Positions 27,100 to 31,096 of a stretch of 64,000 nt of DNA are shown here, piece after piece. The notes below the pieces were generated by a model that saw nothing but the letters and a program-made list of their open reading frames with translations, did not search any database and was not told where the DNA came from. Within the stretch, counting starts at the first letter, position 1. Each line of letters starts with the position of its first letter. A program made the translations under genes and the position numbers. The DNA is from Escherichia coli (GTDB lineage Bacteria; Pseudomonadota; Gammaproteobacteria; Enterobacterales; Enterobacteriaceae): assembly GCF_041248615.1 (NCBI RefSeq), contig NZ_CP158426.1; one strand, written 5' to 3'.

Positions 27100-27161
27100 A
27101 TCGGCGGAACCAGGCTTTTGCTTGAATGTTCCGTCAAGGGATCACGGGTAGGAGCCACCTT

Positions 27162-28154
27162 ATGAGTCAGAATACGCTGAAAGTTCATGATTTAAATGAA
27201 GATGCGGAATTTGATGAGAACGGAGTTGAGGTTTTTGACGAAAAGGCCTTAGTAGAAGAGGAACCCAGTGATAACGATTTGGCCGAAGAGGAACTGTTAT
27301 CGCAGGGAGCCACACAGCGTGTGTTGGACGCGACTCAGCTTTACCTTGGTGAGATTGGTTATTCACCACTGTTAACGGCCGAAGAAGAAGTTTATTTTGC
27401 GCGTCGCGCACTGCGTGGAGATGTTGCCTCCCGCCGCCGGATGATCGAGAGTAACTTGCGTCTGGTGGTAAAAATTGCCCGCCGTTATGGCAATCGTGGT
27501 CTGGCGTTGCTGGACCTGATCGAAGAGGGCAACCTGGGGCTGATCCGCGCGGTAGAGAAGTTTGACCCGGAACGTGGTTTCCGCTTCTCAACATACGCAA
27601 CCTGGTGGATTCGCCAGACGATCGAACGGGCGATTATGAACCAAACCCGTACTATTCGTTTGCCGATTCACATCGTAAAGGAGCTGAACGTTTACCTGCG
27701 AACCGCACGCGAGTTGTCCCATAAACTGGACCACGAACCAAGTGCGGAAGAGATCGCAGAGCAACTGGATAAGCCAGTTGATGACGTCAGCCGTATGCTT
27801 CGTCTTAACGAGCGCATTACCTCGGTAGACACCCCGCTGGGTGGTGATTCCGAAAAAGCGTTGCTGGACATCCTGGCCGATGAAAAAGAGAACGGTCCGG
27901 AAGATACCACGCAAGATGACGATATGAAGCAGAGCATCGTCAAATGGCTGTTCGAGCTGAACGCCAAACAGCGTGAAGTACTGGCACGTCGATTCGGTTT
28001 GCTGGGGTACGAAGCGGCAACACTGGAAGATGTAGGTCGTGAAATTGGCCTCACCCGTGAACGTGTTCGCCAGATTCAGGTTGAAGGCCTGCGCCGTTTG
28101 CGCGAAATCCTGCAAACGCAGGGGCTGAATATCGAAGCGCTGTTCCGCGAGTAA
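27162..28154 (+). CDS. rpoS: RNA polymerase sigma factor RpoS (sigma-38)
   Basis: ORF 27126..28154 over-extended; start at [17 protein letters not shown] (27162), 330 aa; sigma-70 family regions 2-4. Confidence 0.95.
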
Positions 28155-28274: not shown

Positions 28275-28682
28275 CTATTTGCTCATCATCTTGCGCACCA
28301 ACTGCATAAACAGCTCCTTCTCTTCTGCACTCAAACGCCCCAAAAATTCCTCATCCACACTGTCACCAATGGGGATCGCCGCAGCAAGTACCTTTTCTCC
28401 TTCGGCAGTCAGCCAGACAAAGCGACGCCGCTTGTCAGCGGCGTCATGTTCACGTCTGACTAAGCCACGATTTTCCATTCTTGCCAACATTTCTGCCAGC
28501 GTTGCTTTGGTGCTGACTGCTGCTTCTATCAGTGCCACCTGTTCGATACCAGGCTTATCAGCAATGGCGCGCATCACCGCGTACTGTGGTTTGGTGAGGT
28601 TAGGTAACTCGTGCTGCCAGCGAGCCGTGTGCTGCTGAAAAAGCTGTCGTAACTGATGGAACGCTTTATTTCGTAACGCCAT
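28275..28682 (-). CDS. MarR-family (SlyA-like) transcriptional regulator
   Basis: ORF 28275..28715; winged-helix MarR-like region; start placed at MALRNKAF (28682), which has a GGAG RBS; divergent from ecdB. Confidence 0.8.
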   Translation of the reverse strand: MALRNKAFHQLRQLFQQHTARWQHELPNLTKPQYAVMRAIADKPGIEQVALIEAAVSTKATLAEMLARMENRGLVRREHDAADKRRRFVWLTAEGEKVLAAAIPIGDSVDEEFLGRLSAEEKELFMQLVRKMMSK

Positions 28683-28798
28683 GTAAACTCCGGGCAAACT
28701 ATCTGCCGCTATCATAGCGGTTTTTCAGTGACGAAGAAGATGTTGTTACTTTTCAGTGCTTGCCGCGATGAAAACAGAGGCGTATTTTAATAATAACG

Positions 28799-28810
28799 TT
28801 CGTATACGAA
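28799..28810. promoter_or_regulatory. perfect 12-bp palindrome TTCGTATACGAA; candidate MarR-type operator at the ecdB promoter
   Basis: Self-complementary 12-mer 19 nt upstream of the ecdB ATG in the divergent regulator-ecdB intergenic region. Confidence 0.35.
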
Positions 28811-28828
28811 TAATTAAGAGAATAAACA

Positions 28829-29422
28829 ATGAGACTGATCGTCGGGATGACAGGGGCTACCGGTGCGCCTCTTGGGGTGGCATTACTGCAAGCGCTGCGG
28901 GAGATGCCGAATGTCGAGACTCATCTGGTGATGTCGAAGTGGGCGAAAACCACCATTGAACTGGAAACGCCTTACAGCGCTCGCGATGTTGCTGCCCTCG
29001 CAGACTTCAGTCATAACCCGGCGGATCAGGCGGCGACCATCTCCTCAGGTTCCTTTCGTACCGACGGCATGATCGTTATTCCGTGCAGTATGAAAACGCT
29101 CGCCGGTATCCGTGTCGGTTACGCCGATGGCCTGGTAGGGCGCGCGGCGGACGTCGTGCTCAAAGAAGGCCGCAAACTAGTGCTGGTGCCGCGTGAAATG
29201 CCGCTTAGCACAATCCATCTCGAAAATATGCTCGCACTTTCGCGCATGGGCGTGGCGATGGTGCCGCCGATGCCTGCCTTTTATAACCATCCCGAAACGG
29301 TAGATGACATTGTCCACCACGTGGTAGCCCGCGTGCTGGATCAATTTGGCCTCGAACATCCTCACGCCAGGCGCTGGCAAGGATTGCCGCAGGCCCGGAA
29401 TTTTTCTCAGGAGAATGAATAA
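28829..29422 (+). CDS. ecdB: UbiX-family flavin prenyltransferase (aka pad1)
   Basis: 197 aa; UbiX/Pad1-like N-terminus MRLIVGMTGATGAPLGVALL; 1-nt overlap with ecdC. Confidence 0.85.
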   Translation: MRLIVGMTGATGAPLGVALLQALREMPNVETHLVMSKWAKTTIELETPYSARDVAALADFSHNPADQAATISSGSFRTDGMIVIPCSMKTLAGIRVGYADGLVGRAADVVLKEGRKLVLVPREMPLSTIHLENMLALSRMGVAMVPPMPAFYNHPETVDDIVHHVVARVLDQFGLEHPHARRWQGLPQARNFSQENE

Positions 29423-30849
29423 TGGCATTTGATGATTTACGCAGCTTTTTACAGGCGCTTGATGACCACGGCCAGTTACTGAAAATCAGCGAAGAGGTGA
29501 ACGCGGAACCGGATCTGGCAGCCGCAGCCAACGCCACCGGGCGTATCGGCGACGGCGCGCCCGCGCTTTGGTTTGATAATATTCGCGGCTTTATCGATGC
29601 CCGCGTGGCAATGAACACCATCGGTTCCTGGCAGAACCACGCGATTTCCCTCGGCCTGCCGCCAAACACCCCGGTTAAAAAACAGATTGATGAGTTTATC
29701 CGCCGCTGGGATAACTTCCCCATTACCCCGGAGCGCCGCGCCAATCCAGCCTGGGCGCAGAACACCGTCGATGGCGACGAGATCAACCTGTTCGATATTC
29801 TGCCGCTGTTTCGTTTAAACGACGGTGATGGCGGTTTCTATCTCGATAAAGCGTGCGTGGTTTCCCGCGATCCGCTCGACCCGGATAACTTCGGCAAGCA
29901 GAACGTCGGCATCTACCGCATGGAAGTGAAGGGCAAACGTAAGCTCGGCCTGCAACCGGTGCCGATGCACGATATCGCTCTGCATCTGCATAAAGCGGAA
30001 GAACGCGGTGAAGATCTGCCGATTGCCATCACCCTGGGTAACGATCCGATCATCACCCTGATGGGCGCCACGCCGCTGAAATACGATCAGTCTGAGTACG
30101 AAATGGCGGGCGCGCTGCGCGAAAGCCCGTACCCGATCGCCACCGCCCCGCTGACCGGTTTTGATGTGCCGTGGGGCTCGGAAGTGATCCTCGAAGGGGT
30201 TATCGAAAGTCGTAAACGTGAGATTGAAGGGCCGTTCGGTGAGTTTACCGGCCACTACTCCGGCGGGCGTAACATGACCGTGGTGCGTATCGATAAAGTC
30301 TCTTACCGTACCAAACCGATTTTCGAATCGCTCTATCTTGGTATGCCGTGGACCGAAATCGACTACCTGATGGGGCCTGCCACCTGCGTGCCGCTGTATC
30401 AGCAACTGAAAGCCGAGTTCCCGGAAGTGCAGGCGGTAAACGCCATGTACACCCACGGCCTGTTGGCGATTATCTCCACCAAAAAACGCTACGGCGGCTT
30501 TGCCCGCGCGGTGGGCCTGCGTGCAATGACCACGCCGCACGGTCTGGGCTACGTGAAGATGGTGATTATGGTCGATGAAGACGTTGATCCGTTCAACCTG
30601 CCGCAGGTGATGTGGGCGCTCTCCTCGAAAGTGAACCCGGCAGGCGACCTGGTGCAGTTGCCAAATATGTCCGTGCTGGAACTCGACCCTGGCTCAAGCC
30701 CGGCGGGGATCACCGACAAGCTGATTATCGACGCCACCACGCCTGTCGCCCCGGACAACCGTGGTCACTACAGCCAGCCGGTGGTGGATTTACCGGAAAC
30801 CAAAGCCTGGGCTGAAAAACTGACCGCTATGCTGGCCGCACGTAAATAA
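29422..30849 (+). CDS. ecdC: UbiD-family (prFMN-dependent) aromatic acid decarboxylase (aka yclC)
   Basis: 475 aa, UbiD-like; operon partner of the UbiX homologue. Confidence 0.85.
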   Translation: MAFDDLRSFLQALDDHGQLLKISEEVNAEPDLAAAANATGRIGDGAPALWFDNIRGFIDARVAMNTIGSWQNHAISLGLPPNTPVKKQIDEFIRRWDNFPITPERRANPAWAQNTVDGDEINLFDILPLFRLNDGDGGFYLDKACVVSRDPLDPDNFGKQNVGIYRMEVKGKRKLGLQPVPMHDIALHLHKAEERGEDLPIAITLGNDPIITLMGATPLKYDQSEYEMAGALRESPYPIATAPLTGFDVPWGSEVILEGVIESRKREIEGPFGEFTGHYSGGRNMTVVRIDKVSYRTKPIFESLYLGMPWTEIDYLMGPATCVPLYQQLKAEFPEVQAVNAMYTHGLLAIISTKKRYGGFARAVGLRAMTTPHGLGYVKMVIMVDEDVDPFNLPQVMWALSSKVNPAGDLVQLPNMSVLELDPGSSPAGITDKLIIDATTPVAPDNRGHYSQPVVDLPETKAWAEKLTAMLAARK

Positions 30850-30859
30850 GGAGAACAAG

Positions 30860-31096
30860 ATGATTTGTCCACGTTGTGCTGATGAACAGATTGAAGTGAT
30901 GGCGAAATCGCCGGTAAAAGATGTCTGGACAGTCTATCAGTGCCAGCATTGCCTCTATACCTGGCGCGATACCGAACCGCTTCGCCGCACCAGCCGCGAA
31001 CATTACCCGGAAGCGTTTCGTATGACGCAGAAAGACATTGATGACGTGCCAATGGTGCCGAGCATTCCGCCGCTGCTGGCGGAAGGTAAGCGTTAA
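30860..31096 (+). CDS. ecdD: small zinc-ribbon subunit of phenolic acid decarboxylase (BsdD/VdcD-like)
   Basis: 78 aa; CPRC...CQHC pair typical of the small D subunit. Confidence 0.75.
   Translation: MICPRCADEQIEVMAKSPVKDVWTVYQCQHCLYTWRDTEPLRRTSREHYPEAFRMTQKDIDDVPMVPSIPPLLAEGKR

Follow-up and report, generated by a model that had tools for sequence, protein, structure and literature searches.

The 12-bp palindrome TTCGTATACGAA (28799–28810, + strand), located between the divergent genes hosA and ecdB in the analysed stretch of E. coli DNA (64,000 nucleotides, hereafter the window), is very probably the operator from which HosA represses the ecdBCD operon just downstream of its transcription start, with 4-hydroxybenzoate relieving the repression. 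The element is already known: this operator is a published, experimentally characterised one. The present analysis establishes the identity of the regulator and of the operon, the match to the published oligonucleotides, and a phylogenetic footprint. The initial annotation had proposed the palindrome as the operator through which the adjacent regulator controls ecdBCD. That proposal is borne out by the HosA identity of the regulator, by published binding and by repression described in papers citing Roy & Ranjan 2016, and by the cross-genus footprint, which falls on the same block. The coordinates of the features are collected in Table 1.

Table 1. Features of the hosA–ecdBCD locus in the window and the basis of each assignment.
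Feature	Coordinates	Strand	Basis
hosA, MarR/SlyA-family repressor, 135 aa, start MALRNK	28275..28682	-	PDB match and RefSeq
Divergent hosA–ecdB control region, 146 bp	28683..28828	.	Gene limits; alignment of 75 distinct spacers
Conserved box TATCATAGC, likely hosA −10 (TATGAT, minus strand, 28716 to 28711)	28710..28718	-	Conservation
Predicted ecdBCD promoter −35, TTGCCG	28760..28765	+	Conservation
Predicted ecdBCD promoter −10, TATTTT, 17-nt spacer	28783..28788	+	Conservation
HosA operator GTTCGTATACGAAT	28798..28811	.	Half-site conservation and published oligonucleotides with the same flanks
ecdB ribosome-binding site AAGAGA	28816..28821	+	Aligns with a GAGG block conserved in other genera, 8–9 nt before the ATG
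ecdB (VdcB; UbiX-family flavin prenyltransferase subunit B)	28829..29422	+	NCBIfam NF041206, 312.5 bits, cut-off 290; RefSeq product name
ecdC (VdcC; UbiD-family decarboxylase subunit C)	29422..30849	+	NCBIfam NF041204, 788.9 bits, cut-off 650
ecdD (VdcD; small subunit D)	30860..31096	+	NCBIfam NF041205, 120 bits, cut-off 30

The MarR-family regulator flanking the palindrome proves to be an orthologue of HosA. Its sequence is identical at 132 of 134 positions to the protein deposited as 'Transcriptional regulator HosA' (PDB 8AGA/8PQ4; E 1.2e-82), which corresponds to 98.5% identity with the crystallised EPEC HosA. Overall, the hosA product matched 66 solved MarR-family structures; against the NCBIfam MarR and SlyA models it scored 27–29 bits, far under their cut-offs of 120–240. 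RefSeq annotates the same 408-nt coding sequence identically in the E. coli record NZ_OW967178.1, to which the window is 100% identical over 28275–29422. The intergenic region had initially been given as 113 bp (28716–28828). Its actual length is 146 bp (28683–28828), as HosA begins with MALRNK (28682) both in RefSeq records of identical and related E. coli sequences and in the crystallised protein; the shorter figure arose because the longest hosA reading frame, starting at an upstream in-frame ATG (28715), was assumed. The program-made list of open reading frames lengthens the N-terminus of hosA in this way (28275–28715, 146 aa versus the annotated 135 aa), and rpoS is likewise lengthened via an upstream in-frame ATG (27126–28154, 342 aa versus the annotated 330 aa).

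The operon divergent from hosA encodes subunits B, C and D of a non-oxidative hydroxyarylic acid decarboxylase. All three VdcB/C/D models score above their curated cut-offs and the RefSeq names agree, so the earlier naming of the genes as ecdBCD stands. By its gene order, nlpD-rpoS-hosA-ecdBCD-pphB-mutS, the locus belongs to the E. coli rpoS–mutS polymorphic region; 2404 of 5426 complete E. coli genomes carry it. The site confirms the presence in this strain of the paraben/4-hydroxybenzoate-inducible decarboxylase module that belongs to this variable region. The HosA/4-hydroxybenzoate switch has already been characterised and is in use as a biosensor part; the result has little significance beyond correct annotation. 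The analysis adds a few minor points: the motif is refined to GTTCG-N4-CGAAC, in which the central YRYR is free, the spacer limits are corrected, a promoter is predicted, the operator of this isolate shows a rare SNP, and other genera have a second site further upstream.

Published work bears on this element directly. A preprint (bioRxiv 10.1101/2024.04.24.590444), citing Roy & Ranjan 2016 for the binding, describes a palindromic HosA site downstream of the point where transcription of the HAD operon starts; according to this preprint, the operon is silent unless 4-hydroxybenzoate is present, and this compound induces it strongly. The original study is Biochemistry 55:1120 (PubMed 26818787), as given in the reference list of PMC6694116. 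Cao et al. 2018 (PMC6261655) used EMSA and biolayer interferometry and found that synthetic DNA with a 14-bp HosA TFBS is bound by HosA, and that 4-HBA (Kd 4.7 uM) dissociates the protein from DNA. The flanks of their oligonucleotides DNA-HosA-F0/R0 (23 + 22 nt), between which the palindrome is marked in bold as the binding site, are the same as window positions 28775–28797 and 28812–28833. For both strands, the machine-read supplement of that paper prints a binding site of 15 letters, GTTTCGTATACGAAC, whereas the main text speaks of 14 bp. The same 15 letters on complementary oligonucleotides are impossible, which leaves a small uncertainty in the exact published bases.

The native E. coli operator is GTTCGTATACGAAC, and this 14-bp form, spanning 28798–28811, is the canonical one both in publications and by conservation. 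It consists of two 5-bp half-sites in inverted orientation, with 4 bp between them. Compared with the published site, the window has the same core TTCGTATACGAA and one outermost substitution, T28811 for C, which limits the perfect palindrome here to the inner 12 bp (28799–28810). The closest characterised counterpart, the HosA operator of the E. coli UMN026 HAD operon, shares with the window its locus, its regulator, its divergent operon and its palindromic core, but ends in C where the window has T28811.

We verified the sequence of the 12-bp palindrome and its self-complementarity. It is the single exact copy of TTCGTATACGAA within the window and lies 18 nt 5′ of the ecdB ATG (28829). However, palindromy alone was rejected as evidence of function, as perfect 12-bp palindromes occur in the window at chance frequency (17 seen versus ~15.6 expected, 64000/4^6), and the real support for the site is therefore its conservation. 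The chance of such a palindrome falling in a given 146-bp spacer is ~0.04 (146/4096). Copies of TTCGTATACGAA with one or two mismatches are at chance level in the window. A search of the window for further HosA sites gave five one-mismatch matches to GTTCGNNNNCGAAC versus 2.75 expected, none above chance, and among these matches the operator itself is the only one in a promoter context.

To assess conservation, a species-representative genome collection was scanned with HosA, which yielded 80 loci with 60–98% protein identity (Escherichia, Citrobacter, Salmonella, Klebsiella, Enterobacter, Kluyvera, Kosakonia, Leclercia, Lelliottia, Phytobacter, Pseudocitrobacter, Atlantibacter, Rahnella, Erwinia and others). 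The spacer alignment comprised 75 distinct sequences, 68 of them non-Escherichia. Nearly all loci have hosA and ecdB in divergent orientation, separated by 145–199 bp. The motif GTTCG-N4-CGAAC is found upstream of the first operon gene in every usable spacer (~78 loci from more than 20 enterobacterial genera), usually 15–21 bp from the ATG (24 bp in L077, 35–36 bp in four Rahnella loci). Its ten half-site bases are without mismatch except in the window (last base T) and in three Rahnella species (first base A). Among the 68 non-Escherichia spacers the operator is the best-conserved 14-column block, with a mean identity to the window of 0.88–0.91 versus 0.45 elsewhere in the spacer, and TTCG (28799–28802) and CGAA (28807–28810) are 100% conserved. 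Variation is restricted to the central 4 bp (TATA, TACA, TGTA, TATG, CATA) and, rarely, to the outermost pair; a variable centre between fixed half-sites is the pattern expected of a dimer that reads two half-sites and merely spans the centre. Six loci without ecdB (L055, L065, L070, L073, L083 and L084), in which hosA faces the UbiD-family gene ecdC, also retain the motif ahead of the operon. These six loci belong to Pluralibacter, Superficieibacter, Cedecea, Rahnella victoriana and Erwinia endophytica.

The same alignment allows the ecdBCD promoter to be predicted. The TTG at 28760–28762 is 99–100% conserved across genera, the next 17 nt are not, and T28783, A28784 and T28788, equivalent to T1, A2 and T6 of a sigma-70 −10 hexamer, are again 99–100% conserved. 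This TTG-17-TAnnnT arrangement would place the start just 5′ of the operator, probably near 28795, so that the operator would occupy about +4 to +17. The palindrome had been described as lying between the promoter and the ecdB ribosome-binding site; this position agrees with the conserved promoter elements on its 5′ side and with AAGAG (28816–28820) on its 3′ side. We propose that a HosA dimer would bind the half-sites GTTCG and CGAAC, 4 bp apart, at 28798–28811, just 3′ of the ecdBCD start and 5′ of the ribosome-binding site. Bound there, HosA would block RNA polymerase at promoter escape or during elongation, keeping the decarboxylase operon silent, and 4-hydroxybenzoate, a substrate of the encoded enzyme, would bind HosA, release it from DNA and thereby induce the operon. 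Binding to the canonical site and release by 4-HBA are published (PMC6261655), and repression of the operon is described in papers citing Roy & Ranjan.

HosA could also act here by promoter occlusion, if transcription started from TTAATA (28787–28792)-16-AATAAT (28809–28814), with the palindrome filling the spacer and the −10 element. This was the only promoter-like site returned by a consensus scan of 28550–28950, with 9 of 12 matches. However, its AATAAT is due solely to the private C>T change at 28811, the corresponding sequences in other E. coli and other genera being AACAAT, AACAAA and AACGAA, and we rejected it as the native promoter for this reason; nor is TTAATA conserved, in contrast to the upstream TTG and TAnnnT with their 99–100% conservation. 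A start ~7 nt past 28814 would, moreover, lie inside the ribosome-binding site, giving a leader of ~8 nt, and the citing preprint (bioRxiv 10.1101/2024.04.24.590444) puts the HosA site downstream of the start. Occlusion of this kind is accordingly disfavoured and appears very improbable.

If transcription does start near 28795, the palindrome is itself transcribed and folds into a stem of 5 bp capped by a 4-nt loop, where most of the sequence variation would then reside; it might therefore act in the mRNA, as a small hairpin of the ecdB 5′ leader affecting stability or translation independently of HosA. The folding energies do not support such a role: the hairpin alone reaches ~−2.9 kcal/mol, and the 51-nt leader folds no better than its shuffles (z = +0.9; 165 of 200 fold at least as well). 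The hairpin makes no contact with the ribosome-binding site. Its stem bases are invariant, not covarying, which fits a sequence-specific protein contact, and the Rahnella variant ATTCG...CGAAC would yield an A–C mismatch. Direct binding of HosA to double-stranded DNA has been published as well (PMC6261655). We consider an RNA function still more improbable than occlusion. As for the palindrome being a chance feature of an AT-rich spacer with no function at all, its unremarkable frequency in the window, with 17 perfect 12-bp palindromes against ~16 expected and one- and two-mismatch copies behaving likewise, would be compatible with this. The conservation data exclude it for practical purposes, as both half-sites remain unchanged in over 20 genera with spacers that otherwise share ~45% identity with the window, and binding assays for the HosA site have been published (PMC6261655); we assign to chance the smallest likelihood of all. 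The preferred reading thus remains a HosA operator just downstream of the ecdBCD start.

On the hosA side, conservation within the spacer is second highest in the TATCATAGC box, whose T/A positions match the window in 91–99% of the 68 non-Escherichia sequences. A scan had pointed to a terminator-like hairpin, GCCGCTATCATAGCGGT followed by TTTTT, at 28705–28721. Its core TAT(C/G)ATAGC (28710–28718) is conserved across genera, but the outer stem is not; because conservation is limited to the core, the terminator was rejected, and the core is probably the −10 element of hosA on the minus strand. Whether the regulator also controls itself, as the initial annotation had considered, receives a divided answer. 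One preprint (bioRxiv 10.1101/2024.06.07.597875) attributes to Roy & Ranjan both HosA auto-inhibition and repression of the HAD operon in E. coli UMN026. However, relative to the likely hosA −10 the operator is positioned ~90 bp upstream, a geometry that offers no explanation for auto-inhibition, so any autoregulation by HosA would not be a simple occlusion by this site. The spacer also contains a perfect 9-bp direct repeat, TTTTCAGTG (28722–28730 and 28750–28758, 28 bp apart), which is not preserved in the other E. coli lineages compared. As it is not kept even within E. coli, we rejected it as a functional element and regard it as probably a chance occurrence.

Classical MarR-family operators, such as those of marO/MarR, SlyA and HucR, are short (pseudo)palindromes in the spacer that separates a MarR gene from its divergently transcribed target operon; they are bound by a dimer, which a small phenolic or aromatic ligand releases. 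In marO two sites lie over the −35 and −10 elements, whereas in E. coli HosA has one 14-bp site, on the downstream side of the predicted start. PcaV of Streptomyces coelicolor, a MarR repressor, controls an operon for aromatic-acid catabolism and is released by a hydroxybenzoate-type ligand. This protocatechuate-responsive repressor (PDB 4FHT/4G9Y) is the closest solved relative of the hosA product after HosA itself (E 1e-15), but the relationship is distant, and its operon (pca, beta-ketoadipate pathway), ligand and operator sequence differ. HucR has been used alongside HosA (PMC6261655, PMC6694116).

The outermost substitution in the operator is rare. Position 28811 is T in the window versus C in 76 or more other sequences inspected, comprising six other E. 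coli and all other genera; C occupies it in essentially all 68 non-Escherichia spacers, and T in none. A 70-nt query over the operator matched 728 genomes; of the complete E. coli genomes searched, only two were identical to the window across it, among them the record that matches the window. Hundreds of the 728 matched at 98.6%, and in both of those fetched the single difference is base 28811. The substitution breaks the outer G–C pair of the 14-bp palindrome and converts AACAAT at 28809–28814 into the −10-like AATAAT. The presence of C in all other sequences indicates that this base probably matters, and judging from the sequence, HosA may bind more weakly at GTTCGTATACGAAT.

A second HosA-like site, mostly GATCGTRTRCGAAC, occurs in 35 loci of Klebsiella, Enterobacter, Kluyvera, Leclercia, Lelliottia, Pseudocitrobacter and Pluralibacter (L010, L012, L018, L021, L022, L025, L026, L028, L033, L037–L039, L043–L054, L056–L064, L068 and L071). 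It lies 56–57 bp 5′ of the proximal operator, with 4 nt separating it from the conserved −35 TTG. It is missing from the compared spacers of Escherichia, Salmonella, the Citrobacter freundii group and Kosakonia; the aligned stretch of the window (28741–28754) reads GTTGTTACTTTTCA. A site abutting the −35 element suggests two-site repression in the genera that carry it, and it could matter when a HosA promoter is ported into sensors. We speculate, while holding it rather unlikely, that T28811 is a natural weak operator-constitutive mutation raising basal ecdBCD expression and that, jointly with this, the Escherichia control region is a reduced, single-operator version. Neither the T28811 variant nor the difference between single- and two-operator regions was found in the HosA literature consulted.

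One further locus departs from the usual spacer length. In Enterobacteriaceae bacterium LSJC7 (L075) the hosA–ecdB spacer measures 598 bp versus ~170 bp, with the operator 16 bp before ecdB. That the operator keeps this distance despite the long spacer suggests an insertion between the operator/promoter region and hosA.
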